From Catajapyx aquilonaris (lineage: Eukaryota), in contig JYFJ02000935.1 in assembly GCA_000934665.2 (NCBI GenBank), forward strand, positions 1-64,000: DNA of 64,000 nt. The letters are read 5' to 3'. Positions 4,800-59,595 of the stretch are shown here, in pieces. Both the position numbers and the translations under genes were made by a program. The notes under the pieces are model-generated. The model saw only the letters and a program-made list of their open reading frames with translations, did no database searches and was not told the DNA's origin. The first letter of the stretch is position 1. The number at the start of each line of letters is the position of its first letter.

Positions 4800-4890
4800 T
4801 CTTACCTGACCAGGTGTCACACACAATATCATGGCTCATAACACAGGACATCACTTACCTAAAAAGAGAGAAAAAATTATTTAGAGTGTG
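4800..4890 (-). other. Recursive splice site candidate C with 53-nt cryptic RS-exon (4858..4806)
   Basis: Minus strand reads CTCTAAATAATTTTTTCTCTCTTTTTAG|GTAAGT (junction 4859/4858) with about 40 nt free of AG upstream. The downstream donor is CAG|GTAAGA at 4806/4805. The exon has stops in all three frames. Confidence 0.75.
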
Positions 4891-5456
4891 GAAATAAACC
4901 TCAAATTATTAATGACACCACCTCACACTCATTTTTACAACACCGTATTATTGGTCAAATAATGCATTCTTTTCAGCAATGTTTTAATACCTCAATTCAG
5001 TGGTTGTGAAGCGAGGCTGTCAAGGAAAGAACTGCAGAACCATATTTGCAAACAGCTCCTCTGTGATAAGCAAAATGCAACACCATATTTGCCAGATTTG
5101 TGGCACCAATTTCCACGAACTCTGGTGCTAACGTATGACCTATTCCCCGTAATTGGTTCCATTACAACCCAAAGCGCGTTGTGATAGTGAACTACTACAG
5201 CTTAACCAATTTCCATCATGCAATTTCGGGAACCCAAGCGTGACCTGCATGCGACCTTTTGTCTTAACCAAATCGCACCTACTTGTCTTCTACACTCTTC
5301 TTATACAATCCCGATAATACCTCATTTTGGTGCAACCATAAATTTTATATCTTCATGTAACAGCGATTACATATATGGTGCAACAAGTGTAGCGATAGCT
5401 TGTAATAATTTATTCACACCTCACTTGGTGTTTGTATTTTTTTACACATATGAAAT

Positions 5457-5744
5457 GGGGGAGGCGTGGCGTGGCGGCCCAAATTGGTAATGACTCGGCT
5501 TGCTGAGCGGAATGTCCCGGGTTCGATCCCAGCCCGGGAGCTCCCTTTCGCCTGCGTCAGGAGGGTCTCTGACCCGCGCCTTGGAGGCGTCTGGGAACCT
5601 AACCTCCAGGGAGACTGCACATGACCCAGTTTCAGACATTGCACCAGCACCCGTGTCTCCTCCCCCAAAATCCCCATCTCTACCTCATGTCCTTTCTTCC
5701 CTGCACGGAGTTAGAAGAAAATACACAGAAAATTGATTAAAAAA
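5457..5744 (+). mobile_element. tRNA-derived SINE (second family)
   Basis: A-box-like GGCCCAAATTGG, anticodon-arm-like TCGGC-TTGCTGA-GCGGA, B box GGTTCGATCC at 5520-5529, GC-rich body and A-rich 3' end. No clear TSD, so ends are approximate. Confidence 0.7.
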
Positions 5745-8700
5745 CAGTGGTGCTCCACCCCCTAAAAGAGCTCTGTTCTCTCTCAACGTGGTAAATTAAA
5801 AAAATAAAATCCATATGATAAAATTAATGACCTGAATGGTTGTCATTTCTGCTACCGGTATTATATGTATTTACCAAGAACGCAAAGCATGGCTTCAAAG
5901 ATATGTGCATTTCCTGAAAACTTCCAGTACACTGCACAATGGAAGTCTAGTCGGATGTGCATTTTAATGGATTCCTGGACCTGTTCATAACAAATAATTC
6001 AATTCCGGCGAGTCTTCCGAACGAACCTTTCTCCTAGTATGAGGAAAGGGCCTCGGGATATAATGACGCTTCTGCGATCGTCCAGCTCAAGTCGTGCATT
6101 CACGTGGAGGATACCGTCCGCCTGCTGCACTTGAAAGGACTCCACCTCAAAATTACTGCAGATCTACGCAATCACGCTCCACATATATAGGTAACCGAAA
6201 GGACCTATTCTATACACGTGTGATAACGCACCTAGGCTATATTCACAACTGTCGTTCAGTTTTCATAGAATATTCCTTCAAAATATATTGTACGTGAATT
6301 TTACCCACACGCACTTACGCACATCTGATGCCGATACCTACCAACAATAAACACGCAGCACAAAAGCAAATAAATTGAGCATCTGAAGAAAAAAAAAAGA
6401 TACAAAGCCCAGTCTTCAAATCTGCCGTCGCTTGCTTTAAGAGGTTCCATTCTCAGTAAAGAGGAAAAGTGCTGGCGCGCGAGAACGGAACTACTGTACA
6501 GCAGTACTTTCAGCACAGCTTTTACGAGCCTAAATTTTGCCTTAAAGAACATTTTGCCCGGGAAATGTAGGTCGGAAGGTGACACAATGCTACACATGCT
6601 ATAAACGGAAATGGAAGGGGTGAAGGGGAGGGTTGTATTATCCTGACTCCCCGGCTTCCAAAGTATTATTTGTAAGCCCGACTACATTTTCCCTGATATA
6701 CTGTAAAATGCGAAAATGTCTGGGTTGCCATTAACGGATCTCATTTTTTTGCATACCTATTCTTACGAAGGAAACCTGTGGCCCTCGAGTTACATTCTTG
6801 CAGCCCAAAATTCAGCCCAAGATCCAGAGTGTGGAAAAATAACGAGGGGAAAAAGGGACAAGGCGTTGAGAATGATTAGATCTGGGAAGATGTGTCACCC
6901 CAAAAGAGATAAAAGTGGAAAAGTATAAAGCCCAACCCTTTTTCTGCCTTGTTTTGCTACTTGAGGCAAGAGGCAGGGAAAAATCCTTTTTTTTCTTCAC
7001 CTTCTTTCTTCTCCATTCGTCAGACACTCCATTTCTCCGCACTCCTTTTCCGGCTTACACTTTGGACTTTCTCGCGCCTGTTATTGCTAGAGTAAACCCA
7101 GGAAAAGATGAGACAAGGGGATTAGGGAGTGCTGTTCATTTCCAGGAGCCTGTAGGGCCTGAGAAATGCTTATTAGCAGACTTTGCCGAGACCCATTTCG
7201 GGTCAGTTTGATCCTGCAGATTCGCCCTCCACCTCTGCCCCTCTTTCCAGCCATCAAGGGAGAGGCTAAGGATTTATACCCCGCCAAGGATAGACTGACG
7301 AGCTTTTCTGCGACCCTGCAAAAACAATAGTCCCCGCTCACAGCTCATCCTATGGGATGGAAGTGGGGGGAAGGTTGGGACGCGGAGGGAGAGGGGAGGA
7401 AGAGGACGGGCTTCCACCGATTTGGCCCCGGGGAAAACTGATAAATGACTTGGTACACTTTGCCCACCACATTGGCTAATTATGATAGAGATTAAATAAC
7501 TAATTAGCGTGTCCAAATTCCTTGGGAAAGAGAAGGCGAAATTACCGCTGGGAGCACAATTTCCTTCCGCTTGCTGCATCAGGCGACGCGCTACTTTGTA
7601 GATAGGGACGCAATTTGTGACTTCCCAAACCATTTAGATCCGACTCAGATTACTCGTATCATATTACTTGAGACATTTCGCAACAACAACGGAGGACCCC
7701 CCAAAAGAATGTTAGCGCGGCTCGTGTGACTTGTTATCAGTTTACTCGGTAGTTGCTGACAGACTATTTGACCCTTAAAAAATAAATATGTGGTTCAACA
7801 TGCAGCCACCAGGGGCGACAATCGACTGCGAATTTATTAAAATATTTACATCCACAGGACCCACCCTGTAGCAATCACTGAATCCGGCCCAAATGGTGGG
7901 CCCTTTCATTAACACATGGCCTGGCCGCAGTATATACCGAATGATAATGAAAAAGCAGGCAGGGTCGTACAGGTGGCGCTCTACCAGAATTGCAACTGGG
8001 TGGCTTCCACGATGGGCCCACAGGGGAAGAAACATAAAATAACAAAAAAAGAGAGAAAAAAATCCGGTGCCAGAAATTCACTCAACTGCTTTAGCGCGCT
8101 CGTAAAGTCTTCCATGTCAATACCGAAAAGCGGTTTCTAGTCTGGCGTCGAAAAGAAAGTCTCGAGAGAGAGAGCTGGCAGTTGAATCTGAAATGAGGAC
8201 ACTTCCTTTCTCATTATTCATGCATCGAATAATGCATATAAAAATTCAATTTCATTCCCTCACGCAACCTATGCGCTCTGGACTACTGTAGGAGGCTGAC
8301 TGTGTCAGTTATTGCGTGTATTATTCATGCAGGACGGAGATACTAATGGAAACTACCTTTATGCGTATAGAACTAATTAAGGGTCCTGGGGATCTCCTGA
8401 AAGTGACTGTTGATATTCACCTTTTCCCATTGGGATTCCACTCGCTGACTGAAAGCTCACTTTTTAAAGGACTGCTGCACTGTCAATTTTAATAAGCGTT
8501 GCTCGTCAAATCAGCATAAAGTTGGGAATGCTTGCCTTGAATAGGAAAATGCTTCTCTTTATGTTGCGCTGTGCATAAATGCATATGCTGCTAAGTCACT
8601 GGATTTATGCCTGTAATTACTGTATCTACTAATTACTGGTCCTATCATTGGGTTAAGGAATATAACTTTCTTTTACTTTGTATCTTCTACACGCTGGCTC

Positions 8701-10941
8701 TATAAAGGTTGGATCAAGTCACAAAGTTTGTCATTTCATAAGTGATATTTGATCACAACGCGTTCCCATCCAGTTGCAGGGGAGGCTGTCGGGAAGTCAC
8801 TGTGATCGTATGCTACCTCATTTTTCATGAGTTTTGCAACGATGTGTAATAAATTACGCTCCTGGACGCACACGTCCAGAGGTACATTACAAACTTGTTT
8901 TCATGTACGTATTATGCGCTATTACCAATTGTTATCTTTCCATTATGCTAGCTGTCGTACGGAGCGAAAAAAGTTAAACCAGTACTGCAATGAGCCAGAT
9001 TACTAATGAATAATGACTTCATTTTGTACCATTACCAACTTTGGCAAGGCCTGACTATTCCCCACCCTTACCCCCCAGCAGCATGCGTTAATTCCAGTTA
9101 ATCTCTTTTGTCACTGGCGTACGTTGCTACTCTGCCGGTACTCCTACAAAGCGCTGTATTTAAATGTAATACAACGCTTTGCAGCCCTACAAATGAAATT
9201 AGTCCACTGGTAGAGTAACTCTTTGTGGAGGGGACCTTCTAATTATCCACAAAGACATACACAGGGTCACATATGGCAAAAAGCCACACATTCACATTTA
9301 CATACTGCATTACAGTATTCTGCTCCAATGATTTAATATCCCCCTTCTCGCACCATATCCCACAGCTTGATGGCAAAGAATCACATTACAATACATGGCC
9401 ATTCTATTGCAGAGATCAAACTCGTTCGAACTAAGTCCAGTGGGACACGGGATAACCAAGTTATGTAATGCACTTGTAGAGATCTACGTATTTCAAAGCT
9501 TCAATCATGTATCGCATTATATGTGATGCATGGAATTATATGGTCGCAGGACTAGTTAATAACAAAATTATTATCAATTTGTGCCAGGAAATTAAAATGA
9601 TCACTGGGAAACACTTGTTTTTCCTTCGGCACTGCCTATGTTCCATTACACGTTGAAGAAATATTTTGTCTAACTACTATTAATCATTGTTTTAAAAATC
9701 TCCGAGTCAGTCATACACTACTTCTAGTTATAATGTATTGAACTAATCTCAATATTATTGTAAAAGTAGGCCCTCCTGCACAAACTAAGTGTAACGAGTG
9801 GACACGTCTTTTGCACATTATTTTCAGGACAACAATTTAATTTCTTTACCATGAAACGAGTCAGAATCATCGATTATATTATATTGTGAATATTGTACAG
9901 TACGTAATATTACAATAAGTTGACGAAAGTATTTCGTTTCAAAAATAATTACTATATTCATGTTACGTCCTTTTCAAACAGTAAAAAATTCTGTGTGCCT
10001 TTTACCTCCGCAGCCTCCAGTGCATTAGTTACAATTTTAATCCGCCGACTGCCATAATACCCACCGGAGTAAAATAAAACCTTCAGGTGGAATAAGTATT
10101 AGTATTTTACATTTTTTATGCCAGTGGGATTATGTAGTTGTAGAAGCCCAGTATATTTCACCAAATGCGAATTACAAATTTTTGATCCAGCATCAAGCAA
10201 AAAGGATACATTTTTTTGTTCAACTTACCCCTCCCCCCCTGACTTGATCTCAAGTGAACAAACGTATGAAATAAAATTCCTCGTCACAAAGCCCATGCCC
10301 GGATTATTTGGCCAGTTAAAATCACACACATGCACACGCTAGAATAACAAATCCCAAAAAGCGGCTGAAACCCGAGAAAAAAAGCCCGTTACAAACGACA
10401 GCCTATACACCAGCAACCTCCGAAAAGAAATGGCCTCAGTTGGCTGGACGTCACCCCTTTCACCAGCGCCCCCAAAGTGAACCATACGGTCCCACACTAG
10501 GCATCTAGATGCCGGAGCAAACTGACCAGAAATCCATCTGTCCTTATCATCCGAGACGAAATAAAGAACCTCCAGGCCCTCTCCACCAAAGGCTTTGAAA
10601 ATGACCTCCTAAAGTGAAGCAACTTGAAGAGTCGTTAGATCGCACCGTGAGGAGGGAGTAGGGAGTAAAGGGGGTAGGGGGGAGGGTGATGCGATAAAAC
10701 GAAATGGTTCTGGGCCGCTTCCACTTTCCCTTCAAAGCCGATGAGTGATTGGCAAGTGCAGACTCGGGTCCATCCTGTGGATGGCTCTTTCCGATCTACG
10801 CCTGATAAGCCTCCAATGGCACTCACAACCAACAGACCTTTCAGTTTATGCACACGGGGGTGAAACCAATAGCTGTGAGCTTCATGTAGGTACGATTGCC
10901 CCTAAAGCATCCCGCTAGGGTGTTATATAAAAAAAAAAGTT

Positions 10942-10961
10942 GGGGGGGGGGGGGGGNGGGG
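10942..10961. repeat. poly-G tract containing an N (10957)
   Basis: Seen directly. Confidence 0.9.
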
Positions 10962-13900
10962 TATAAAAAATGTCCCGACGGCTCCCTTACGTGCACAGAC
11001 ACAAGTCATAAATTAACCTGCCTCTGGCTATCACTGCATTGTGATGAATAGCGGCAATGATAACAGCTTGCCACAACACTCGGCTACCCAAAGGGCACGG
11101 GAATGCAGAGGTCCAAATTTTTAATTCGCGTACTAAAAAAAAAGGTCTGTTTTTGTTCATTGCTTGTTGGGCTCATCGTTCTGAACGTACAAAGTGCAAA
11201 TTGCACAAAGCGCACTGTAGGGTTTTTTTTGTAGTGTAATCACAGAAACGGATACCAACAAGTATACTGCATGTAAGGTTGTTTTGATCACTGGATAACC
11301 TGCACGTAGAGCTAGCTATAGTTTTCACGTAATATATGCTTTGATTTGTATGTATTATCGAGCACCATAAATTTTTTTAAATAAAGCACGTTCGGACTGG
11401 TTAGAAAATATGGCAAAAACTAACAATCCCGTAGCATGCGACATTTTATACAATGCATATTACAAAAGAGGTGTATACAGTACTGTACCTAAGAAAAAGA
11501 GTTCATTTCATAGAGCTTTGAGTATACAATTTAGGACTAATGTATAGAGTTCGAGAGTGTATCAAAATTTCATGGGTACACTTTTGGAATGAAAAATTGT
11601 CCGAATGGTACGGATCGGTTTCCGTTTGAAGTTAATAGGCCCCGCCAAAGCTCTGCAGATGAGAGAATAATGACATCATGACAGAGGGAGTCTAGACTTG
11701 AACGAACCTGACAGTCAAGCAAGTATTCTCAAAGGCTTGCCGGAAGGGGGAAAAATCTCAAATATTCATCTGGTCCTAGTGCATATAATACGATGTTCAT
11801 AAAATATAAATCACCCGGAACTAAAAACTCAAGAGTGCTTGTTTCAGTCAACAACAGAATAGTAAATAATTCATATGCAGAGATGCACCATAGCTGCACC
11901 AGAAAAAAATACTGTATATACAGTATATTCCTATATTTGAAGCCAGCAACAGCACCCAATAACGTCATATATGGTAAAACACATACGGGAATTTGACAAT
12001 CACCATGGCATGATTGAGTAATGCGGTCTCTTTGTTAGCGCCATGAAATGAATTTTATTGCAAAGTGCTGTTATGTGACTGAAGCGCACTGCGCTGACAA
12101 AATGGTAAATAATATTATGTGATAAAGTATATTACGACAAAAACACTACTGGCAGTAGGTTATTTGCTTCCGCCCAAATAGTTGTCCAGAGCCATCATTT
12201 TACCCATACACAATGCACTGTAATTTTAATATAACAACAATCACCCAACGTTTTTAACGAAATGTGCTATGCTATACCGCACACGCATGATACTTGACAT
12301 CCCGGGCCTACGAATTAATTGCCGTGATTAATGTGAATAGAGCTCCAACAAGGGATGTAATACGTTTTGGAAGTCAATAACCCCATTTCTACATTAATCC
12401 TGTTGGAAAGTTCTTTTCAATTAGCTACGGTCGCCCTTTGCAAACTCTGCTGCAATGATTAAAATGTCAAAAATGACGACTGTAGATCTATCTTCAACTC
12501 TCTGAAACTGTATTTTGTACAGATTATCCAATATTGTTCCCGACAACAAAGGGGCACAAAATTCTCTCAAAAGGTACTGTACAGTACCCACTCCATTTAA
12601 TAGTAATGAAAGCAGGCAGGTACGTTAAATTATGTAGATGCCAATCAGATATAACCATTACGTAATACCTGAAGCACAAAACGATGAGAGTCACACTGGA
12701 GTGATTTTAAGACACGAGGGTTCGAAAATTGCATTAGCTCTTTCAAACATGGAACCATTACTTCCCCAGAAAAAAACCAGACTTGACCATCATAAAGCAA
12801 GATTTAGAGCCCATATTCTCCCATGTTCAACTCAATTTTGGCCAAAACGTGTCTCTGATCGCTCATCAAGTCAAGGCTTCAAAAATATACATGAGCAAAA
12901 ATGAACATTCTCAATTATGAGTTACCAGTAACAGAAGAGGGTTTAATCATTAAGTAATGACAACATTTCGATACCAGTGCCAAGATTTTTTCCCCCCTAC
13001 CATTTATGTGCCATGATGGGGAAAGTGTTTTGCTCGGGGCCTCTTTATCACAGCCTGCCACAAAGATATATTGCATCTGTGTAGTAGCACATCCGACTTT
13101 CGTACGTTATATTTCAAATAAGAACAAATGGGCTATGATGCTTGATGCGTTCTTAAGAGCTGAGACTTTTTGCAATGTCCGGCCATGATTCACTGATGGG
13201 AAACATTTTCAGACTATGCACTCCAATCTGTGTAGTGCTTGCTTCCAGATAGTTAAGGCATCCTGATTCCCTTTTAAAATATTTGTAGGTATAAACATAG
13301 CATGTTTTTGGCAGGTTTTACATGGATTTTGGCCTAATTGCAGAGTATCATCATCCCATAATTTTGATATTGGCAAGGGAACATCACTCAAGCTATCGAG
13401 TCAACAGTTTACATTAAAATATCGTGATGCTCTAGTTGATAATAGTCAGCCACACGCTATTTTATTTAATTAACTGTCACCAGTAATCAAAATTTAGTAA
13501 TTAACTGTGACATCATTCAGCTGTGACAAATTAATACAGCAAATAATATGGACAGCCTCATTTTACATATTACGAAGGACAATAGCCCTAATCATTTGTA
13601 TTCTTGACCAACCCACGCCAAAATATAAATACATGTAATATTTTTTAATCTGCATCCTTTCAATCTGGCGATATGTGTGCATATCTTTTCAGATTTGTAC
13701 TAGACTGAATAAATCGGAATAAATCGTATGAAAATTAGTCTAGCGTGCAACAGCACACATTTCCAAAGGTACTTGAAGTTGTCCCAGTCTGATCTCCAAC
13801 ACGCTCCTGTTTCTTTTTTCTCTCTCTATCTCTCTCTTTCCCTACAAGACTCTTTGCAAGAGCTGTCAAGATGCTAGCGCCAGAGGGGAAAGCTTCGATT

Positions 13901-14466
13901 TTCTTCATCCTTAGACACAAAAGCTGCCACAAAAAGCATGCACCACGTTCCCAGCATTGCTTTAAAGCTCTAACAAGTGCTTCAAATCCCCTGCACAACT
14001 CTAGGACCAAGAGATTGCTTGACCATTACTCATTTCCCAGGCCTGTAGAGGAAAAAGGCTTGTACTGGGTGTAGTCAAGGTGACGTAATCCACTTGACAG
14101 TGGCGGGCCAAAACATGTGGCAGTTGTCTTATCTTAATCCCAACCACCATCTCACGGTGTGTAGAATCTACTGGCCCGTACACGATTCCAACCAGTACGA
14201 AATACAGTGTCTAAGAGACGAAGAAGAGCCCATATAATCCATAGAATTTGGTTTGGGTCTGGCTTGTGGGTATACACAGTGTACATGGTGTTTCAAAAGG
14301 TGCTAAATTCCTCTCGGTTGTAGGTTTTTTGATATATTCTAAAACAAAATTGCTCTAGTTGAATTTGGCTATTTCGACTCTATTACAGAAATTATCGCAT
14401 TTTAGTTGGGCAACCCATACGTGATGAGCCTACCTGCCTAGCAACGGTGCTTGGAGGATAATATAA

Positions 14467-14745
14467 TAATATCTTACCCCGTTATCAGCCTTTTTTGGCT
14501 CTTTAGGGGGGATTTGTGTTTTGTCTGGAACTCTTGCGTACATTTTTACTTTGATTTTTGGGATAGGATAGGAAAGGAAGAAGGCGGCTGTGGCCTATTA
14601 ATTTAGGAAACAACTCCGGAATTCTTCTGGAGGGACCGTGGGAAACCACAGAAAACCACGGTTAGAGTTGCCGGCCACGGGGCTCGAACCCAGGACCTCC
14701 CGATTAGCAGTCGGACCCTATAGCCACTCCACCAAACTGCTTCGG
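14467..14745 (-). mobile_element. tRNA-Ser(GCT)-like SINE, copy 1
   Basis: Minus strand has A box TGGTGGAGTGG, anticodon arm TCCGA-CTGCTAA-TCGGG and B box GGTTCGAGCC. The body aligns end to end with 31803-32077. It is flanked by the direct repeat CGGTGCTTGGAG(G/A)ATAATATAA (14445-14466 and 14743-14764). Confidence 0.92.
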
Positions 14746-16058
14746 TGCTTGGAGAATAATATAACTCACAGGATATGTGACAAAATGGAAACTTGGCATC
14801 AGATGACCACCGTCACGAAGTCAAAATCAACTAGAGTGATTTCTTCTTGGAAGTTTGCCCCTTTTATCAAAGATTCTTTACAAACACATCGCCAGGTTCA
14901 ACTCGGCACCACAATTAGACCAATTGGACCTGCGATTTGATTGCGGAATCCTGGCTCCCAGAGTTTTGAACCATCAACCGTCGGTGGCCACTCCTGCGGC
15001 CAAGAACCGCCATTTGCTGAACAATCTTGCAAATTGTCGTTGGCGGAACGATTTTTTTTTTTGGAAGCAGTCTTGCAAAAGGGGTGGGCGTGGAAGTTGG
15101 CCGGCACCAAAAACTGGTCAATTCGCATCGCATCCCAGAATAAGTCAGCCTGCTGATACATGCCCAGAGTGTAAGAGGGCCGTTTGTTGACGGCACTCAA
15201 ACGCTGATGGCGTGGCCTAAATCAAAGTCAGAGGCTCGAGCCAAGAAAAGTCCCCGGAAAAAGACTTGTGGCAGCGGCAATGCCAATTTTATGATTGACC
15301 GAATTTGTGCCCTAAGTGCGTAGTACTAGCAATCGCTATTTTTCTATCCCAGTTCCTTCACTAGAGTTGGGGAGTGGTGGCTACTACCACAGTGGCTGAG
15401 CGAAGGCCTCTGAAAGCGGGCGCCGAGATGGATGGCGACGCGCTCCCTTCTCCCGAATGGCCCTGCAATTTGGCAGCGAGGACAAAGGCTGCTTTTTGCC
15501 TCCGTGCTGGTCGAAAAGGAAAAGGTGGGGGACGGCCGGGGAGGATGGGTTCGGGTGAGCGGTGAGGACACATTCGTTACGAACCAGACAGGCCATCAGT
15601 TTCTGTCGTGGGGGGGAGTCAGGGTGGCACACCCTCCCTTTACCAGCCACTAGCACACCCAAGTCCTACCCGTTGCCAAAAGGCTCTGAAAGACAACGAC
15701 GGAGGGTACAGGAGACATGGCCACACACCCCCAGGTTTTTGGAGGGAAACAAAAAATTTCATTACACCCGTAGTGCACACGACAATATTCGGTCCCATCT
15801 GGAGGCTGTAGGGATACTGTCAGCGGTTTTGGATAGGTTTGAGGAAAGTGGTCACCGGGAGCTGGAAGATTGGACTGCTTTTTACACCTGCAAACACGCG
15901 CGTGTGCCGTTTAGTAGAGCAGGTTGGTGGACATGCTCCCAAACATTGCTATTCTCTAGGTTACTGTAGCCAGCGTACAGGATGTTCATATTCACTGTTT
16001 GTTACTTCAGTTTTGGATACATTAAAAGTACAAAGGTTTGTTATGTGGGTCAGAAAAA

Positions 16059-16560
16059 TGAATAAGTTGTTTCGAAAAGGACTTAAGTCCAGATGGCCGT
16101 ACCATATTGATTTACAATTATTTTGCCACAAATACAGGGCCCTTACAGGTCAGCAGATAATGCATTCGGCTCCAGGAGGATGCTATCCATATGTGTGCCT
16201 AACTGCTGACCTGTAAAGTCACTGTATACGTGGCAAAATAAATAAATTGTAAATCAATATAGTATACGGCTGTGTGGACTTAAGTCATTTTCGAAACAAC
16301 TGATTCAACTGCTGGCAGTTCCGGGAGTGGATGAGACGCATCGCGCCGCACCACAAAAACGTGGTTCCTGGAGAGTCTGCAGGCGTTGGCACACCCATGA
16401 CTCCTGTGCAATTCGTCTCAAGGATGATTCTGTCGATAATGTGTGCCTATCTGCCGACCTGTAAGGGCCTTGTCTTTGTGGCAAAAATAGAAATATATTG
16501 TAAATCAATATGGTACGGCCCTCTGGACTTAAGTCATTTTCGAAACAACTGGTTCAAATA
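16059..16560. mobile_element. Degenerate MITE/foldback with one left arm and two right arms
   Basis: The left arm (~16059-16166, AGTTGTTTCGAAAAGGACTTAAGTCC...CTTACAGGTCAGCAGA) is the reverse complement of both ~16191-16308 and ~16439-16560. Confidence 0.8.
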
Positions 16561-19473
16561 TGGTTCATGCATCAACAACAACAACCGAATCGCAGTTAAA
16601 CTTTCAGATTATAATAATGTACTATTAGCTCGCTGGCCCAGTGACACCAGGGCCCTTACTCAGCGTCAGTGATAATCCACCTACAGAAGTTAGGAACAGT
16701 ACAGTTTGATGAGAAAAATGCTGAATAAATAAGCTTATTTAGACTACTCCCAGTAAAATGCCAACTCGAGTCACTTGGATGACAACCGTAAGGACTACTC
16801 ACCACTTCCAACTCCACCCCGAGCTCCATCCATTCCATCTATGTGCACAATACGGTCTCCGTTATTCCTCACAAACTCAATGCCCTATAGTGTGCTTTGT
16901 TAAGTCTGTATGGTACATGCCAGTGGGTTACTAATTGCCTAATCAGGTCTGGTGGAATTCCTTCTCTTCACGCACTTTGTATTCAACTGTACTACGGATC
17001 CTAACAAATGATTCGAGGGTGCATTGAAAGGAAACAAATTTGGTGCGCACAGCACTTGTTCACCTCTTTGTTTTCCGCCAGAAAAAGCAAATTAACCCGT
17101 TGCAAGCACGAGGACTAGATGATGACAGCTCTATAAATGCTCTATATAAGGATTTATTATCCAGTCGCCACAGTTGGCGTGAGCTCCGCTATAAACGCAC
17201 CTGATGCTTATCGGTTTGTAATATTTCTCCACCCGGTCAACCTCCTCATCCGTTCATTTTTTTTGCACATGGCATTGTTCGAACGCAGGCTGTTTTAATT
17301 ATCTAAGAATAGCTGCGATCTGAATGGTACGAATATAAAAAAGTAAGTGCGCTTTTTTTTGTGAGCAACAAATTTTTGTGCGCTACTCCCCCGGCATTAT
17401 TAAGATGAGATCGCGAATAATTTAGCCCATCACGCAACCTCTTGGCACGTCTGCTAAAACAGTCGTTTACAACAGTGCATTTCAGGGCCCATTATCTGAG
17501 AAAAGCGCTCATTTATAACATTTAGTCTAACGCTGCCGTGAATGTCTCCTCCAGATATTCAGACTTCAAGTCACGGAACAATCTTAAGTTTAGGAGTATT
17601 GTTGGTGATTTTATCGCTAGCAATAAGGAGCACCTTCTCTGGCAGGTTGGCTTTGAAAAGTTAGTTGGTAGGGGTAGCATGATGCACACTTCGCTCAGAC
17701 TTTTCAATTACTTCATGTTATCAAAGTGACAACAATGCATTTTGTTCAATTTAAGTTCAGTCCCATCCATTTCTTGATAGCAATATATATGTTCTGATAT
17801 CTACAACTCTATGGCGCAAACAGCATCGTAACGCAGGGCTATGGACTGATAGACATCTTAACGGTTAGTTCCTTCCTACATTAGGGGAGTATAAGCCATG
17901 ACATTCAATGAGACGAGCCACGAACAAGTCCTACTGAATCTTACGATACTTGAAAACAGGAAATGTAAACAAAGTCCATTCGTCCCTCATTTTGGACTAT
18001 CAGCAACCAAAACAGAAATCCCCCTTCCTACTCTGGACTAACGGTAATATGCAAAAATCTGCTGAAGTTCTGGACTCTTCAGCAATTTCACCCATGAACG
18101 CCTAACTTTTTGGGGTTGCCATGTTTACTTACATTTTCAGGAGAGAAACTCGGTGATGCATTTCCATTCCACTTGAAATTTCCCTTTTTAATCTACGCCC
18201 TTCCTGGAAACGCCTGGAGCAGACGGGAAACGTAATTTAGGTCCGAAATTGCATATGCATACTGATTGATCCAACCAACTGGATTTGTGTCTTGATTTGG
18301 AAATCTGGTTTCCGCACTTGAGAGCAAATTGCTTCGGAATATTACACCTCCAAAGAGAAATGATCCGCACAGGAACTGCCTTGAAACAAACGGAAGGAAA
18401 GGAGGGCACATTGGACGGGACAAAAAAAAAATCAGTTTCAAACCACCGTGTTATAACAATCCGGGAATGAAATTAGTCTCGTCATGCACAATCCTGTGCT
18501 TTTTCTGTCACATCTCCAATTTTCTTTTCAGGAGCGCCCCATTTTTCAATATAGGCCTACCATGATGTCAGACACAGCCGGATATTGTTGTACACACTTT
18601 GAAAAGTTTGGACAAACTGTAGAAATTATTAAATCGTACATGAAGAATTGTTCCAGTCGCAAATTCCCCTCTTAGCGATGCAAATTAACTCGTAACAGTT
18701 ATGTAAGGTTCCTTAGGAGTCATTTTAGGATTTGTTAAGTGGATACCACTGTTCGCGGTGGAAGTTGGCAAGGAAAACATATGAAGCACTGAGGACCACA
18801 AACTATAATGATAGGCGTCCTCTCCTCAGCCAGCGGACATTCATGTTGGGTGGTGGACCCATAAATGGGGCATGTGACTAGCGCTCAACTTGAATAACGG
18901 CCTGGGTAGAAATCACCCCTGATTCTTGTTTACTTCTTGCAGGAACGACTTTGACAGTTTTTATCATGGGCCATGGCTCTCAAGAAATTCTGGGCATAAA
19001 TTCGGTTTTCTTAGCTCAGATCTCATATGCCAATCATTTCTGTGATATGAATTTTCATTTCGGAATAACACTTGTAAATCCAGTACAAATTCGTACTGGA
19101 TTTGGATGTGACATGTTTATACACACCTAACGTCGACTTTTCCCCACATATTTATTTTGAAAAAAGTACGTCTTGCACAATGCTTTCAATATCCTGGAGG
19201 CCAAATACTTCCCAGGTCACCCCGCCACTGGCTGGAAGCAGACGAAGCGTGTCTTTCAATCATCAGAATCCATTTTTCCCAAGGCGTCCCCACCACCACC
19301 ACATACTATAGCTAGGTGCCAAATCCCTTTTTACCCACCCATCCACCCACTCCCCCCCGTTTTTGCATGCCATCTTTTATTTAATGTGGGGTGGGGGTGG
19401 GCGGATGTCCTCCCACTCGGAGCGGGGCTGGAAATCTCAATTCAGTTTCCCGCGGTCGAAATGGGGCAAAGCA

Positions 19474-19481
<8 letters not shown>

Positions 19482-19529
<48 letters not shown>

Positions 19530-19539
19530 NGAGAGAGAG
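19482..19539. repeat. (GA)n microsatellite with N at 19530
   Basis: Seen directly; source of the ERERER ORFs. Confidence 0.95.
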
Positions 19540-20806
19540 GGTGTGTAGGGATGTTGGGAGGTGGAATCGGAGAGGACAAGGGTTTTTCTGAGGGTGGAGA
19601 CTATAGCATGGGGCTCACGTTCCCGTGATATATGCCGGTCTTGAACTTCATTATCTGGGCCGGCGGGTTGACGGCAAGGAGCGAGGTGGGTAGGGTGGGG
19701 TGTGGTGGGAGGATGGAGTCCCACTCTTTGGTGCCTTGCCAGGAAGAAAATAACATCGGCGACTTTGATTCGTACCCTACATCCAGTACCCCCACTCCTT
19801 TTTTCGGTCCCTTTCTTAGGGAGGGTGCACACACACAAAAAAAAATGCTGGAATTGCCGAGGTTTCATCATGGGCGTAGGAACCCCTGCGCCCTATTGTC
19901 AGGGATTTGGGAGAGAAGCTGTCAGGAGATGCTCAGAGACCCTCATCCACCATACTGCTTGATGGACAGGGTGTTGTCACACACCAGGCGTGAATGCATG
20001 TGGCTATCTTCACCCCTCTGGTTTGGGTACAGAGCACATTCGTAGGAAATTTTTCATGCAACTGTGTAAACTAGCACTGATATTTAAAAGTTGAAAATGC
20101 GACGTATATTAAGTACAACCTCCATGGCAGGTCAAAATCAGTCATGCTCCAAGGGGAACTAGTCCGGACGGGTGTAAATTCCCTGAATTTCTGCCACAAT
20201 TTATCATTAGGCATGAAACAACATGAATCATTAGCCGTGCCGTTCGTCTCGCACGCAAACTCAAATCTGGACATTTCGCGATTGATGGCACCGCTTCTGA
20301 GGAGGTCTCAAACGCCGTTCCCCCCACCATCCTCCCACCACCTCATCCCTCTCCCTGTGTTATTTGATCATATCCGATGCTACTGCCACAATACCCAAAT
20401 TAATGGATTCTAATCTCCCAAAGTGCGCGTGATGAAATATACATCTTCATAAGCACCGCTTTTAACTACGATGGTAGACCGATTCCCCCCCACCGTAACG
20501 GTGTGATAAGGAGGACCGGAGTTTAAATATTCCCTTTATGACGGTAATCCATCCCTTTGTAGATTACACTTTCCATCCACCCCCCACCCTCTCCCACCTC
20601 TCTTCCAAAGCATCCTTTCAGCCAAGGGAAACGAACCTTCACCTGATAAAAATGGCATTGATTTTGTGCCGCTTCCGACCCTGGACTACATTCACCATAA
20701 ATTCTGGGTTTCCGACAAGCGGGCCCAGAGATCAAGCCATGTGCAGCCAGCCTATCGGGTGTCACTAGCCACGATTGAGTGCGCCGGAATCCCAAGAAAG
20801 ACCAGG

Positions 20807-20811
<5 letters not shown>

Positions 20812-20870
<59 letters not shown>
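20812..20870. repeat. (GA)n microsatellite
   Basis: Seen directly. Confidence 0.95.
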
Positions 20871-20873
<3 letters not shown>

Positions 20874-21257
20874 TCCAACTTTTTAGCCTGATACACGCCA
20901 TTAAGGATGAGGAGGTGGGTTGGGGGTTTCAAGGAAGGAGGGTTTTCCATGCAATGCATGTTGTTCGACCGGTAAATCTCGCTTTTTTCTTCCGGAGCTC
21001 ATCCAACCACACTTTTCTACAAAAAAGGAGGAAGTGGAGCTCTCAAGAAATCAATCCAGTTCCTTAATGTTACAGTAAGAATCCATTGGCAGAGACTGGG
21101 CTTCAAGTAGTAGGAGGTTGGGTACAATATGGGATTCTATTTAGGAGCTGGCAAAAGGTCAAAAAGGCGAAATACGCAATATAGATGTACATTGTACAAT
21201 AGGGTGGGGTGAATAGTTTCACGTTGTGAATAGAGCTAAGCTAAGGATTTTAGAAAA

Positions 21258-21313
21258 TTGGTATGTTCAAGATGTCGTTATGTTGTTGTTGTTGTTTTGG
21301 TATGTTCAAGATG
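21258..21313 (+). mobile_element. 22-nt (TGT)n-rich insert between perfect 17-bp direct repeats; probable tail-only retroposon insertion
   Basis: TTGGTATGTTCAAGATG at 21258-21274 and 21297-21313 flanks TCGTTATGTTGTTGTTGTTGTT. Confidence 0.65.
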
Positions 21314-24300: not shown

Positions 24301-24870
24301 GGAGACGGGGAGATGGGAAGGAAGGAGGAGGAGAATGGCGATGTCTTCAAGGCTGCAGTTGTAGCAAAGTTGTGTCCCGAGGACCTGCATGAAATCGCAT
24401 CCATCAAAACGCAACGAGATTCCCGCAGGTTGTTGTAGGAAATAATTAAACTGCGCCAGCAAAATTCAATTTCGAGGCGCAACTTTCTTGCTCGGGAAAA
24501 GTGGATTTTTTTGCGCTGCCGGAATTGTAATCACCTGCGGATTTACAGGAAGTGACGAAAACGTCTTGCTCTTTTTGCCATTAATTGCATGCCATAAGCG
24601 AATGTCAACTACTGATGCTATCTCAACCTTATTATAATTAAGGTTTGATTATTATCAGAGTAATGTTTGACCTCAGATCTTTACTCGAAAATAAATGAGT
24701 TAATGGCAATGAATATCATAATATACGGTACATTATTCATTGGCGAATTTGCAGGACCACATGGTTACAATACAACAGCGCAATCTGCATGGCTTTAAAT
24801 AATAGCTTATTAAGATTGCCTTCCGTATCAACATCATTAATGAATATGAAATTATGTAGAGTAAATCCTA

Positions 24871-25804
24871 CTTGCTCTGATCTGAAAATATTGGGACACC
24901 CCCAAAAAATGGAGTGGTGGGGTTATACACAGGATGTGATAAAAAGTTTCCATTAAGATTATCTGGACTTTAGAATGGATAATTATGAATAGTAACAATT
25001 GAGCTAGGAGGATACCAAATTTGAAGTTCATTTGACAGTTAACAACTGAAATAAATACGATTATACCTTGGACAGTGAATTTCTGTGGGGTCTGGTAAAA
25101 ATTGCTGCCACTATGTTAATTTCTTACTTAGCGGGATGTAAATGTTGATAATGAACCTGAGGGGCCGCACAAACCCGAAAACAGTTATGACATTAATTAC
25201 AAAAAATCTAGCACAAAATTAAAAAATATTTATCATGGCTTGCAGATATGCCATTTTCTGTGAATTTTTGAATTAAGGAATATTTAAAGCCATTTTACTT
25301 TAATTGCAATGAAATTTTTTATCATAGCACGTTGGACTGAGTTCTAGATAAACAATACTATCACATTTTAATTTATTAATAAATAACACCGTTAAATGTG
25401 GTACAGCCAAGTGTATCAATTTCTGAAAAAATCCACTTGCGATAAATATTTTTTAATTTTGTGCTAGATTTTTTGTAATTAATGTCATAACTGTTTTTGG
25501 GTTTGTGCGGCCCCTCAGGTTCATTATCAACATTTACATCCCGCTAAGTAAGAAATTAACATAGTGGCAGCAATTTTTACCAGACCCCACAGAAATTCAC
25601 TGTCCAAGGTATAATCGTATTTATTTCAGTTGTTAACTGTCAAATGAACTTCAAATTTGGTATCCTCCTAGCTCAATTGTTACTATTCATAATTATCCAT
25701 TCTAAAGTCCAGATAATCTTAATGGAAACCTTTTATCACATCCTGTGTATAACCCCACCACTCCATTTTTTGGGGGTGTCCCAATATTTTCAGATCAGGG
25801 CAAG
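24871..25804. mobile_element. Non-autonomous foldback DNA transposon (MITE), 364-bp TIRs, TA target duplication (Tc1/mariner-superfamily-like)
   Basis: 24871-25234 is the reverse complement of 25441-25804 with about 3 mismatches seen by eye. The spacer is 206 bp and AT-rich. TA occurs at 24869-70 and 25805-06. No transposase ORF. Confidence 0.93.

Positions 25805-27660: not shown

Positions 27661-27661
<1 letters not shown>

Positions 27662-27711
<50 letters not shown>
27662..27711. repeat. (CTA)n microsatellite, left
   Basis: Seen directly. Confidence 0.95.
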
Positions 27712-27715
<4 letters not shown>

Positions 27716-27925: not shown

Positions 27926-27953
27926 ACTACTACTACTACTACTACTACTACTA

Positions 27954-27987
<34 letters not shown>
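27926..27987. repeat. (CTA)n microsatellite, right
   Basis: Seen directly; source of the poly-T/L/Y/V ORFs. Confidence 0.95.
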
Positions 27988-32077: not shown

Positions 32078-32141
32078 TACTATTCAGAATGTCAGACATG
32101 GCAACTTCACTCTCTTCGCAAGCCTATTAATGTCCTGTTAT

Positions 32142-36053: not shown

Positions 36054-36071
36054 ACACACACACACACACAC
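36054..36071. repeat. (CA)n microsatellite
   Basis: Seen directly. Confidence 0.85.
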
Positions 36072-37668: not shown

Positions 37669-37745
37669 ACTTACCGTTCAATGATTGGAAAGGTTCATCA
37701 ACTCAGAACACACTTACCTAGAACAAGAGAATGTACATGTCAGTT
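37669..37745 (-). other. Recursive splice site candidate B with 43-nt cryptic RS-exon (37717..37675)
   Basis: Minus strand reads AACTGACATGTACATTCTCTTGTTCTAG|GTAAGT (junction 37718/37717, CTGAC branch A at 37740). The downstream donor is ACG|GTAAGT at 37675/37674. The exon has stops in all three frames. Confidence 0.78.
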
Positions 37746-55900: not shown

Positions 55901-58900
55901 GTGCTGCGTCCACCCCCGCCCACCTCCCAAGAAGCAACTATCCCTCCTCCCACCCCAACTCTCCGTCCCCCACTCGTTCAAGACCAGGAGCTCAAAGTAA
56001 ACTAAACCGTTTGTTGCAAGTGATTCGAAGCGGAAGCGAGTTCTGCTAGTGCCAGTTGCTGTTTATAAGCGAACCAGCCAACCGGACTTGAGTCCACTCA
56101 CTTTCAAGTGTGTATACGCCTTTAGTTTAGCCTGTCTTTCTTTGACCAAGGGCCCTGTTTGCAACGCAATTTCGCCATGCTGACCAAACACTACCCGGCA
56201 GGTGCGATCTTCTTGCCCACTGTCTTGCAGAGCTTATGAATAATTTAATCTCCTTAACTCCTTTAGAGATCGTGATGGAGGAGCTTGCAACATGACCAGT
56301 TGCAGACACCGACTAGTAATGCAGCAAGCAACAATTCTCGACGTCATTTGGCCAATTATGACAATTCAAGAGCCTCGCCCGTAAGGCTTAATAGGATCTC
56401 ATTATTCAGAACTAAGTTCCTGAGAGAGATCCCAAGGCTCTTGCCGTTTTCGTTCTTCCAAGGCCAGCTAACGTCAGGACGTGGTTGAAGGAGGGGAGGG
56501 GCGGCTGGGGAGGTAAGGATGAAGCGAAATTAAATTCCAGGCAACGAGTGCCACCAGAACGGTGACCGAGCGCCCCATATTATTCATTAATCATCATTAA
56601 CAACGCCTATAACCGCGCCCCGCAATCGCGCTACGAGTAAATGAGCCGAAAAAGTCAACACCATCAGCGTTGCATACAAGTTGAAAATGGCGTTGCCAAG
56701 TTGCCTGCCACCATCCCTATATCCAACACCTCTCTCTTTTTTTCCCCTCATCCCACCTCTGTTATTATTAGTCGGCAAACACAAACTTATCGCGATGGGA
56801 ACGACACTTTTGCATTTTCCCCCTCGGTGATCAACATTGCATGCCACGTTTGTACCTGCACGATATTAGCCCTGCCTGCTGACTATCGTTCCAATTTCAA
56901 TTACTTGATCGCGCTGGGCGATACCTGCGCCACATGGAATGCTCTGGCAGATACGAAGCAAAATTACGTCTTCATATTGCGGTGAATTCAATCTGCATAT
57001 ATGGGCAAGTATTACCACCGCGATGCTAAGTTGGGAAGATGATAATAAAAAGTTCGTGCAACATTACACCGCAAATGTATTCAAAGCCTAGGGCCACAGC
57101 TGGCTAAAAAAAAGAGCGCACATGCTGCTTAGAACGAAATTACCGCTGGAATATCGCAAACTTGGCACGCGTTAACAACTACTGTTATTTCAAACTACAT
57201 AGCCGCTTCATCCTGGCAGTTAGCTAACCTATCCGCCTCTCTTGTCAAACGGGCTGCCCATACGGGAGGGGCTAACACTCCAGCGGTAGCTGGAGGGTTA
57301 GCCCCTGCCGGATACAACCGGACCTAGGTCCGGTTGGATAAAAATGTTCACACACTTCATCAGTAGCGTCCCCTCTAGCAAATTCTAGCAAGAATCGCGC
57401 AGCCATGTATAGCAAAAAAATGAGGCAGCAACATGCAAAAAAAAAAGGCCTGGCCCTTTCCATTCAATCGTTCCCATTTGGCAGCCGCCTGCACGGGCAT
57501 AATAATTAGAGGCTGTGGCACAGTACTGACCCCCTCCGGAGCCCAAAACCCGGATTTCACTCCCCATTCCCTGGCCGCTGCCACTGACATTACGGCCCGA
57601 CTTGCAAATGAGTTACTCTGCTTGCTTATGGATTGTATGCTCGGAACAATTAGTTTGGGATTTTTTAATTACGTCCAGATAATCTTATTAATTTGCTGTA
57701 GTATGAAAAATTCATTACCGTCCCCCCACGTCGGCAAAAAGATTGACAAGACAAATTTTGGTCCATCCCCCTCCACCCCTCTACCAAAAGCCCCAGAGGA
57801 GCCGCCATTATCATAACGGAAAAAGAGGCGGCTGAGTGTAGGGGGCGTAATGCATATTGCCCGACTGCAACGATTTTCGCAACTTATGGATTTATGGAAG
57901 AACGTTTTGATGTATGGCAAGCACATAAATTCAATCCAAGTTGGTCCAGAGTGCGGCAAATTGATGTTACAGTTCCGTGCGCAACGCGATGAATTGGATT
58001 AATCAGAGTAGACTGGACCTAGCCTATGCGTCCCATGACTGTGCCAAGCTGAGAATTATGAAGAGGAAGCTGCATTTACATAACCTGATTTTAAGCTAGT
58101 GTTGGTAAGCACATAAAAAACGAGGGGGCGCCATATGTCCTTCGCAAACGCTGATGACACTATCTGCAAATGTAAAAATGCTCCACAGCTCCACGATTAC
58201 CTTTATCCTCGCATTGCATTAATTTCCTAGACATGAACGTTCGTGCCTAATAAATTAAACTCTTATCTCTCTGGCTGGATCCAAGAATGCAAAAAAATGG
58301 AGGCCATGTTGCGAAATTATTTTCTCCTCTAACTCCTATTTCACTCCCGGAGAAATGGGGGTTGGGTCAACGACCAACTTATATCATGGGTCATACTCCT
58401 CTCGTGCAGGTCGACGAACAATGCGGTAACACTACATTTGCCTACTCTCCTTTTTTGTGCTTTACCTTGTAAGTGCCTACTCGCCGTTAGGTATACCAGT
58501 ATATACATTGGGTGGGAGCCATCCGTTGCATCCACTGCCTGCGGGAGTCAACCTTCATTCGCGAGTGGAACAAACAAGTTCACCAGGATTTTGGTCCCTG
58601 CGGTATTAATATAAGAAAAAAAGGGAGAGGGAGGGGAGAAAAGGTAGAGGGGTGGAGAAGAGAGATAGAAGAGACGGAAGAGAAGTCCGGAGGAGATGTG
58701 TCTTTGGCATTCAAGCGAGGAAAGATGGAATGGCGAAACTCTCGTTCGTCCCTTGAGATAAAAAAATGAAGGAAAAAAATGCTGAGGGACCTGGAAGGGT
58801 GGGGTCCATTCCATAGCTCCGCTGGAATTTTACCCCCCTTCTATTTTTGATCAACTTCCACAGCGCAGTTTGAAACCCTAGTGGCTTTCGTCAGAAAAAA

Positions 58901-59506
58901 AAGTTTCACTTCAACTTGACTTTTGGACTTTAAAAAAAAGCTGGAGCCAGGCGGGTGAATAACACGCGACGTGTAAGTGACGTTGTCACTGTTTCATACC
59001 GCGGCAATGTCAGGCTTTGGTTGGGGCTTAGAGGGAGGTGTTCCAAAGGAGGGTGGGAAAGGTGCCACGACCCCGAAATTATTAAGATACATTCATATCG
59101 AATTTTCCATATGGCTAGTCTGCAGGTACCCCGCGTGCGGCATGTTGCTAATTAGTGCTCCGTTATTGACAGACACAAAGCTTCCGAAAGTGATAACTAT
59201 CAAGAGAAATTAAATGACAGATCATGCAACATGTCAGTTACTTCTAACTCCCGGCTTACCTGCCCATTTACTTAATATGGACTAAGGGGGTGGGATATCT
59301 CTATGAAAGATAATTCCTAGTAACATGGCAGTAATTACCCAAGCAATTAGGCTCGCGGAACACTAAGACTAAAATTGATTTCTATTCAGGATGCACGCTT
59401 CGTTTTACTGTGCGGATAGCAACAGTGGACTATAATTCTATGTGCTTACAAACGCAGGCTTCTACGACGCACTATGCGTTCACGACACCGGAACATTATA
59501 CGTGGG

Positions 59507-59595
59507 ACAAACCTTCATTGAGAATTGCTGCCAATCGCATCAAATTCCTATTCGTTGTGCCCTCACCTGTGAAAGAAGGAAATCACGCATTAGTA
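59507..59595 (-). other. Recursive splice site candidate A with 54-nt cryptic RS-exon (59566..59513)
   Basis: Minus strand reads TACTAATGCGTGATTTCCTTCTTTCACAG|GTGAGG (junction 59567/59566, branch A at 59590). The downstream donor is AAG|GTTTGT at 59513/59512. Confidence 0.68.

Follow-up and report, generated by a model that had tools for sequence, protein, structure and literature searches.

Candidate recursive splice sites with putative cryptic RS-exons on the minus strand of a 64-kb window

In Drosophila, ratchet points are found on the sense strand of long introns (more than 11 kb, mostly more than 40 kb), with 1-6 sites per intron and recursive segments of 2.6-63.6 kb (mean 18 kb). The ratchet-point matrix reportedly originates with Burnette et al. 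in 2005. The consensus has been given as (y)nncag/gtaagt (PMC2773006; here and below, a slash marks the splice junction), and in flies 196 of 197 ratchet points have TT at -5/-6 (10.1101/006163). Conservation of the AG/GT core above that of its flanks is the strongest published discriminator of ratchet points, and the bodies of fly RS-exons have been described as poorly conserved and without dedicated elements. Examples known from flies, according to Duff et al. (10.1101/006163) and Joseph & Lai (PMC8605326), include kuz, Bx, Ubx-RP and luna.

Recursive splicing has also been described in long neuronal genes of vertebrates (Sibley et al. 2015, as cited by later authors). There, RS-exon definition reportedly leads on to a competition between donors, and premature stops are present in the RS-exons, as they are in the two strongest candidates reported here. 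By comparison, the large introns of vertebrates show no sense-strand enrichment of the RP motif (ratio at most 1.5). Computational predictions of RP-sites exist for large introns of beetle, bee, mosquito and sea urchin (PMC2773006; Shepard et al. 2009), and one RS site has been predicted in the 230-kb intron of locust NPF1 (PMC8892266). In the literature examined, transcript-level proof of recursive splicing comes from flies and vertebrates (mice and humans) only, and other invertebrates are represented only by motif enrichment and the one predicted locust site.

The window analyzed here, a stretch of DNA of 64,000 nucleotides, had been described in an initial annotation as carrying three like compound sites on the minus strand, named here by the coordinate of the G of the acceptor AG. 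On re-reading, their coordinates and motifs proved exact, their spacings of 21,849 bp (59567 to 37718) and 32,859 bp (37718 to 4859) were correct, and the second donors 54, 43 and 53 nt downstream were found again at 59567, 37718 and 4859, respectively (Table 1). Both spacings lie inside the range of fly recursive segments, and with 2-4 sites in 64 kb the window is denser in sites than published averages (0.5-2.2 per 100 kb). In common with the Drosophila ratchet points of Duff et al. (10.1101/006163) and of Joseph & Lai (PMC8605326), the locus has strong 3' and 5' splice sites that abut at AG/GT, a prominent pyrimidine tract, TT at -5/-6 in two of the three sites, a candidate branch-like motif at a distance within range, a putative non-coding RS-exon of about 50 nt with its own donor, several sites in one putative intron, and segments that run to tens of kb, all judged here at the level of sequence. 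The predictions for other invertebrates (PMC2773006, PMC8892266) resemble ours in being made at the level of motifs, for what would again be a non-drosophilid invertebrate, and in using strand asymmetry as a control; they differ in that the RS-exon donor forms part of the evidence here. With moderate confidence, we propose that the window would be mostly the interior of a long minus-strand intron of a gene from a non-vertebrate animal, and that 37718 and 4859 would be recursive splice sites in it; 59567, a fourth site at 60044, or both, may be recursive splice sites as well.

Table 1. Coordinates of the candidate sites and associated features in the window
Feature	Coordinates	Strand	Details	Basis
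Candidate ratchet point 4859, graded strongest	4804..4884	minus		sequence, rank, shuffles
4859 branch-like CTAAA	4884-4880	minus	A at 4881	
4859 pyrimidine tract	4879-4861	minus		
4859 acceptor AG	4860-4859	minus	donor GTAAGTGA adjoins from 4858	
4859 RS-exon (candidate)	4858-4806	minus	53 nt	
4859 second donor cag/GTAAGATG	GT at 4805-4804	minus		
Inferred intron segment, one recursive step	4859..37717	minus	32,859 bp	two strong sites
Candidate ratchet point 37718, second strong site	37673..37743	minus		sequence, rank, shuffles
37718 branch-like CTGAC	37743-37739	minus	A at 37740; pyrimidine tract after	
37718 acceptor AG	37719-37718	minus	donor GTAAGTGT adjoins from 37717	
37718 RS-exon (candidate)	37717-37675	minus	43 nt	
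37718 second donor acg/GTAAGTGT	GT at 37674-37673	minus		
Weaker candidate 59567	59511..59593	minus		sequence, rank, score
59567 branch-like CTAAT	59593-59589	minus	A at 59590; pyrimidine tract after	
59567 acceptor AG	59568-59567	minus	donor GTGAGG from 59566	
59567 exon (candidate)	59566-59513	minus	54 nt, one open frame	
59567 weak second donor aag/GTTTGT	GT at 59512-59511	minus	at +54	
Fourth AG/GT site, TAG/GTAAGTGA	60037..60046	minus	AG 60045-60044, GT 60043-60042	
TATAAATA motif	60137..60144	minus	93 nt upstream of 60044 donor	

The junction at 4859 reads tttag/GTAAGTGA (in longer form ttttttctctctttttag/GTAAGTGA, with the core ttttttctctctttttag/GTAAGT) and that at 37718 reads tctag/GTAAGTGT (in longer form ttctcttgttctag/GTAAGTGT, with the core ttctcttgttctag/GTAAGT). 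Both sites have TT at -5/-6 when read from the sequence, and both have a TAG acceptor (T at -3), unlike the CAG of the fly consensus. At 37718 and at 4859, a branch-like A in a degenerate motif precedes the G of the AG by 22 nt, and at 59567 by 23 nt; the motifs of the first two sit at about -23, and fly branch points are found from -36 to -21. The AG-free zone upstream of the junction is 60 nt long at 37718, 39 nt at 4859 and 49 nt at 59567; the median over all AGGT sites is 9-10 nt. Neither candidate RS-exon has a length that is a multiple of 3, and both contain stops in all three frames. Among the 14 AG/GTRAG sites in the window (8 minus, 6 plus), only 37718 (+43) and 4859 (+53) are followed by a G/GTRAG donor within the interval of 25-100 nt downstream.

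The two strands of the window together have 418 AGGT sites, all of which were ranked under 72 scoring variants. In each of these 72, which were ad hoc and built with the sites already in view, 4859 was ranked first and 37718 second. Their continuous scores were 28 and 26, and the expectation per strand from 400 shuffles was 0.0025 sites for scores of at least 28 and 0.0275 sites for scores of at least 26; two sites scoring at least 26 occurred in none of the 400 shuffles. A strict filter that was chosen once the sites were known (at least 14 of 20 pyrimidines, AG-free, YAG/GTRAG) retained three sites on the minus strand and none on the plus strand of the 64-kb window. Shuffled minus strands held 0.25-0.29 such sites on average, and three were reached in 0 of 300 whole-sequence shuffles and 0 of 300 block shuffles. 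Sites 37718 and 4859 thus far exceed what chance would give.

These statistics bear on the reading that the sites are chance or otherwise non-functional pseudo-sites, the DNA being either intergenic or part of a plus-strand transcript, with no splicing here at all. This reading could draw on the post hoc nature of the tests, as the sites were hand-picked by a reader from the 64-kb window, on loose acceptor-donor pseudo-exon pairs, which are common on either strand (28 minus, 25 plus) and do not distinguish the two, and on the plus-strand site 21338, which reaches the score of 59567. We nevertheless consider it improbable. Sites of the strength of 37718 and 4859 are expected far below once per strand, both are on one strand, and both have G/GTAAG at the positions given above, whereas GGTAAG starts 35-65 nt downstream of just 0.75% of minus-strand positions. 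Their AG-free zones and that of 59567 span 39-60 nt, where the median is 10, and the 10-mer TAGGTAAGTG occurs three times in the window, always on the minus strand, against 0.06 expected.

Site 59567 is weaker than the other two, and here the initial annotation, which had treated all three sites as alike and as ratchet sites with cryptic RS-exons, was borne out only for 37718 and 4859, and there at the level of sequence anatomy. Its junction reads ttccttctttcacag/GTGAGG, and cacag/GTGAGG fits the fly consensus less well than do 37718 and 4859; it has C at -5, and thus departs from the TT rule of flies, and no G/GTRAG donor was found within 25-100 nt downstream, where its second donor is GTTTGT. 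It was ranked between 3 and 6 of the 418 AGGT sites across scoring variants. Its continuous score of 24 was equalled by the best plus-strand site, 21338 (ttgcag/GTAAGTAG), a control that also has TT at -5/-6, and the expectation for scores of at least 24 was 0.305 per strand in 400 shuffles; on these grounds 59567 is not beyond chance when taken alone. Scoring of AGGT sites on both strands and in shuffled sequence, which the initial annotation had put forward as a check, hence singled out 37718 and 4859 and did not set 59567 apart from the plus strand.

If the sites are used, the polymerase would proceed toward lower coordinates. U2AF and U2 would bind the branch site and the pyrimidine tract, and U1 would bind the donor that closes the 43- or 53-nt unit, by which a short cryptic RS-exon would be defined. 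Once the upstream exon had been spliced to the AG, it would sit directly before GTAAGTG, and a full-strength donor would be rebuilt. The rebuilt donor would then outcompete or match the donor of the RS-exon, and the RS-exon and the following segment of about 33 kb would be removed together, with no trace left in the mature mRNA. From the anatomy of the sites and their statistical rarity we infer transcription, its strand, the use of the sites and the skipping of the RS-exons. When consensus matches were counted by eye under the U1 pairing rule, the ratchet donor appeared stronger than the RS-exon donor at 37718 and stronger than the second donor GTTTGT at 59567, and the two donors of 4859 (TAG/GTAAGT for the ratchet donor, CAG/GTAAGA for that of the RS-exon) appeared about equal. 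The RS-exon of 4859 might therefore be included rather than skipped, and the tie counts against skipping in the recursive-splicing explanation.

This tie also favors a reading in which the 43- and 53-nt units (and the 54-nt unit) are ordinary expressed non-coding exons of a minus-strand transcript, such as 5'-UTR or lncRNA exons or a poison/NMD cassette, of the "expressed RS-exon" class; the mature RNA would retain the units, whose opening GTAAGT would be repressed or seldom used. With an acceptor, a body of about 50 nt and a strong donor, the units have all the parts of exon definition, and short exons that open with a donor consensus, and at which either donor is usable, are known in the Ubx mI and mII microexons (51 nt, starting with GTAAGA) and among the EJC-repressed RS-exons of mammals. 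According to PMC8605326, flies have fewer than 50 expressed RS-exons and mammals potentially thousands, with the recursive donor repressed by the EJC. The same source counts more than 500 cryptic sites in flies against the fewer than 50 expressed ones. Moreover, the Ubx microexons are described as coding and deeply conserved, whereas the units of 37718 and 4859 have stops in all frames, which excludes a role as internal coding exons. If the regenerated donor had no function, it would be a remarkable coincidence for two independent exons both to open with the full 8-nt AG/GTAAGT, and we regard the expressed-exon reading as unlikely.

A repeat or TE origin of the sites was considered and rejected, since their flanking sequences are not homologous and the sites are thus not repeat copies. 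Between 37718 and 4859, a 41-nt match of 80% spans the junctions, and the flanks do not otherwise align. Beyond the consensus of the splice sites, the bodies of the two RS-exons have a 19-nt stretch in common (TGTTCTGAGTTGATGAACC in one and TGTCCTGTGTT-ATGAGCC in the other) with 15 matches (P about 0.014). Exact 22-mers across the junctions of 37718 and 4859 had no matches in metagenome contigs, and a search for windows resembling this one returned none. It would be an extension of recursive splicing, and one we think very doubtful, if 37718 and 4859 were related sites and the animal, neither fly nor vertebrate, belonged to a lineage that uses cryptic RS-exons, with the shared 19-nt stretch representing either a dedicated exonic element that defines RS-exons or the trace of a duplication.

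The initial annotation had further inferred one intron of more than 55 kb with its upstream exon beyond 64000; the intron could also begin at 60043, inside the window. At this position the fourth AG/GT site, 60044, carries the third copy of TAGGTAAGTG. The site was absent from the list of the earlier reader. It has a weak pyrimidine tract, an AG-free zone of 15 nt and GG at -4/-5, so that with G at -5 it departs from the TT rule of flies; no strong donor was found downstream, and its rank varied between 3 and 20 of the 418 AGGT sites across scoring variants. Site 60044 may act weakly as a ratchet point, or it may be the donor that ends an exon lying upstream, possibly the first. As a speculative lead that was arrived at post hoc, the TATAAATA motif at 60137..60144 might be the core promoter of a first exon of about 70-90 nt that ends at 60044; the motif has two copies on the minus strand of the window and five on both strands, where 3.2 are expected.

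In such a model, the long intron would begin within the window at 60043, where the donor would close a short first exon driven by a TATA motif, and 59567, 477 nt downstream, would either belong to an ordinary alternative exon or amount to a pseudo-site; two true ratchet points would be left, with segments of 22.3 and 32.9 kb, which is compatible with the explanation by ratchet points. The weak acceptor context of 60044 and its missing downstream donor make it more like a plain donor, and one of just two minus-strand TATAAATA motifs is found 93 nt upstream of it (Table 1). The model was, however, conceived post hoc, and the TATA-to-Inr-like spacing near 60044 is not canonical when read from the sequence; it seems to us rather unlikely that the intron begins here.

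The remainder of the window appears empty. Among 125 stop-to-stop ORFs of at least 85 aa, a length limit that would pass over shorter exons, none had a Pfam match above the cut-off and three had weak matches below it, and no Pfam-recognisable ORF was found in the segment 4859..37717. Scans of the window returned no Rfam matches and no tRNA-like genes, and within-window repeats cover 2,286 of the 64,000 bases; the SINE content that the initial annotation had taken to suggest a non-drosophilid arthropod was accordingly unsupported. The CpG observed/expected ratio of the window, 0.77, argues against a vertebrate genome, and nothing more. Its dinucleotide profile is one that we take not to be fly-like. 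On the minus strand, G exceeds C and T exceeds A, each in 23 of 32 2-kb bins across the whole window. An excess of T over A has been reported for the sense strand of introns in both human and Drosophila, and G over C is the pattern of human introns, whereas the coding strand of Drosophila has C over G; the inference of strand from composition is weak, since replication could also cause skew. AATAAA occurs 41 times on the minus and 50 times on the plus strand and is uninformative.

Since neither the mechanism nor the motif is new, the gain from these sites would be incremental. If 37718 and 4859 are used, they would show the design of a ratchet point with a cryptic RS-exon in a non-vertebrate animal, perhaps one that is not a fly, and they would mark an unannotated long transcription unit on the minus strand of an otherwise empty-looking window.

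Re-reading of the minus strand confirmed, exact to the base, the three AG|GT sites at 59567, 37718 and 4859 that the initial annotation had described as ratchet points, i.e., acceptors directly adjoining a donor that permit the stepwise removal of long introns, as well as their spacings of 21,849 and 32,859 bp. The branch-like A precedes the G of the AG by 23 nt in 59567 and by 22 nt in both 37718 and 4859, and the AG-free zones upstream of the AG extend over 49, 60 and 39 nt in 59567, 37718 and 4859, respectively. Over all AGGT sites, this zone has a median of 10 nt on the minus and 9 nt on the plus strand, and 40 nt is reached by 11.7% of minus-strand and 4.8% of plus-strand AGGT sites.

A strict filter (at least 14/20 pyrimidines, AG-free, YAG|GTRAG) matched exactly these three sites on the minus strand and none on the plus strand. 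Dinucleotide-preserving shuffles yielded a mean of 0.29 (whole sequence) or 0.25 (500-nt blocks) matches per minus strand, and a count of 3 was attained in 0/300 shuffles of either type. As this filter had been chosen after the sites were seen, further tests were added. With a continuous score, which is a simple consensus count and not a trained splice-site model, 4859 (28), 37718 (26) and 59567 (24) were the top three sites on the minus strand; the best plus-strand site, 21338, also scored 24. The published ratchet-point matrix reportedly goes back to Burnette et al. in 2005. Among 400 minus-strand block shuffles, the per-strand frequency of scores of at least 24, 26 and 28 was 0.305, 0.0275 and 0.0025, respectively, while two sites of at least 26 were found in 0/400 and a third-best site of at least 24 in 1/400. 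When tract length, T weight, AG penalty and donor weight were altered in 72 score variants, 4859 ranked first and 37718 second among the 418 AGGT sites of both strands in 72/72 variants; 59567 ranged from 3 to 6, and both 21338 and 60044, a fourth minus-strand site missing from the initial annotation, from 3 to 20. Moreover, the fly-literature motif TTNYAGGTRAGT matched three times (4859, 37718 and plus-strand 21338) versus 0.21 expected, and the 10-mer TAGGTAAGTG was present in three copies, all on the minus strand (4859, 37718 and 60044), versus 0.06 expected. Measured against the plus strand and the shuffles, 4859 and 37718 thus exceed both controls and are far outside chance, whereas 59567, equalled by 21338, is by itself not; the uneven distribution of the best sites between the strands is well beyond chance.

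The window contains 14 AG|GTRAG sites, 8 on the minus and 6 on the plus strand; a G|GTRAG 25-100 nt downstream is confined to two of them, 37718 (+43) and 4859 (+53). The second donor of 59567, GTTTGT, is weak, and no comparable downstream donor was found for 21338. A GGTAAG starts 35-65 nt downstream of 0.75% of minus-strand and 0.24% of plus-strand positions. By hand calculation, the chance of two sites of at least 26 on one strand is roughly 4e-4, which, with a factor of 0.0075 for each of the two second donors, gives a rough, post hoc joint chance near 1e-8; pure chance was therefore dropped for 37718 and 4859. That these sites are non-functional is considered improbable. The count of GGTAAGT over the entire window is 7 on the minus strand versus 1 on the plus strand (GGTAAG, 16 versus 6), and strong donor-like motifs, e.g., at 54738, 37184 and 10228, are in excess on the putative sense (minus) strand with the ratchet sites set aside.

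At 60044, the acceptor context is poor (AG-free zone of 15 nt, GG at -4/-5), and a downstream donor was not found. Together with the upstream TATAAATA motif, these features raise the possibility, as a lead only and an unlikely one, that a short first exon ends in the donor at 60044, with the long intron opening at 60043 inside the window. In that case, the role of a minor exon or pseudo-site would fall to 59567, which lies 477 nt downstream, and the TATAAATA motif could be the promoter of the putative first exon.

Features located in the window
Feature	Position	Strand	Description
Site 59567	59567	-	gtaCTAATgcgtgatttccttctttcacag then |GTGAGG; second donor tgaag|GTTTGT at 54 nt downstream
Site 37718	37718	-	taaCTGACatgtacattctcttgttctag then |GTAAGTGT; second donor gaacg|GTAAGTGT at 43 nt downstream
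Site 4859	4859	-	actCTAAAtaattttttctctctttttag then |GTAAGTGA; second donor ggtcag|GTAAGATG at 53 nt downstream
Branch-like motif A	59590, 37740, 4881	-	Sites 59567, 37718, 4859 in turn
Fourth AG|GT site (60044)	60037-60046	-	TAG|GTAAGTGA
TATAAATA motif	60137-60144	-	93 nt upstream of 60044; one of only two minus-strand copies
Best plus-strand AGGT site (21338)	21333-21344	+	ttgcag|GTAAGTAG; TT at -5/-6, CTGAC close by, poor pyrimidine tract; served as control
Similar 19-nt stretch in two RS-exon bodies	37710-37692; 4850-4833	-	15 matches, one gap
Foldback	24869-25806		Arms 366 nt, 99% complementary, 206 nt between; looks like recent hairpin or MITE-like insertion
Two palindromic/inverted-repeat elements	16059-16557; 49832-49979		Inter-arm identity 76-87%
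Dispersed 287-nt repeat pair	14463-14747; 31801-32083		Inverted orientation, 85% identity
124-nt direct repeat pair	32143-32262; 33728-33849		
Tandem array	1-195		63-nt unit of 16-nt TTTTGGCTGTCAGGGC sub-repeats, 3.1 copies, runs off window start
Paired (GA)n and (ACT)n microsatellites	19482-19539, 20808-20870; 27662-27712, 27926-27987		About 1.3 kb and 0.26 kb apart
Single N bases	10957, 19530, 40980, 55364		

No coding content was seen anywhere in the window: none of its 125 stop-to-stop ORFs of at least 85 aa matched Pfam above cut-off. Rfam families and tRNAs were likewise not found in the window, and metagenome scans with exact 22-mers across the 37718 and 4859 junctions gave no relative. 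A CpG o/e of 0.77, with a GC content of about 44%, makes a vertebrate origin unlikely; neither the SINE content nor the arthropod origin read from it in the initial annotation found support, as within-window repeats, consisting of the 366-nt-arm foldback, a few palindromic elements and the dispersed 287-nt pair, cover only 2,286/64,000 bases. On the plus strand, C (14,835) exceeds G (13,490) and A (18,424) exceeds T (17,247), each in 23/32 2-kb bins, with GC skew in 16/16 4-kb bins. Along its entire length, the minus strand is therefore rich in G and T, pointing to one strand-asymmetric process that spans the window. T is reported to exceed A on the sense strand of introns in human (PMC10030826) and in Drosophila (PMC5786239). 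This favours the minus strand as sense, in which case its excess of G over C would be like human and the reverse of Drosophila. Since replication can also generate strand skews, and since the G excess conflicts between taxa, the skew lends weak support.

Sensitive self-BLAST of the 451-nt regions did not align the flanks, yielding only a 41-nt, 80% match spanning the 37718 and 4859 junctions, and copies of a repeat were rejected. Internal coding exons were rejected for the 43-nt and 53-nt units because every frame of both contains a stop; in the 54-nt unit at 59567, one frame is open. The 19-nt similarity between two of the bodies has a shuffle P of about 0.015, and 69/5000 random genomic windows score equally high.

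Judged from sequence, recursive splicing is the best available explanation for these predicted sites, and recursive use of at least 37718 and 4859 is somewhat favoured. A minus-strand transcript would traverse the window, and a cryptic RS-exon, the short unit between the AG|GT core and the second donor, would be defined by the acceptor and the donor 43 nt (37718) or 53 nt (4859) downstream. Joining of the upstream exon to the AG would rebuild AG|GTAAGTG, which has 8 contiguous matches to the U1 5' end; the rebuilt donor would then be used, and the RS-exon would leave together with the next segment. The two donors of 4859, ratchet and RS-exon, look about equal in strength, so that its unit may be included in part, as a non-coding or poison exon; that the 37718 and 4859 units are ordinary included non-coding exons is rather doubtful.

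Duff et al. (10.1101/006163) describe 197 ratchet points in fly, between 1 and 6 to an intron; the introns measure 11-133 kb and their segments 2.6-63.6 kb, on average 18 kb. TT stands at -5/-6 in 196/197, the branch points lie mostly at -36 to -21, and the core is strongly conserved. As a rule, the ratchet donor surpasses the RS-exon donor in strength. In the features open to a clear test by sequence, 37718 and 4859 agree with the fly ratchet points throughout, and their branch-like motifs, though degenerate, lie in the fly range; 59567 departs from the pattern in lacking TT at -5/-6 and in the weakness of its exon donor. Shepard et al. (PMC2773006) found that introns of >50 kb carry an excess of ratchet point (RP)-like sites on their sense strand (ratios: fly 21.7, mosquito >>10, sea urchin 8.2, beetle 8.0, bee 4.0), with 0.07-0.12 sites per 100 kb on the complementary strand. 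Beyond Drosophila, predictions of this kind have therefore already been published. In locust, one RS site was predicted and backed by U2AF65 RIP (PMC8892266), and a 2024 preprint reports recursive splicing as demonstrated in flies, mice and humans. Transcript-level proof in other invertebrates was not found in the literature searched, a scope too narrow to show absence. Recursive splicing and this type of ratchet point are already known, and the two sites reported here would add one case, a modest gain.
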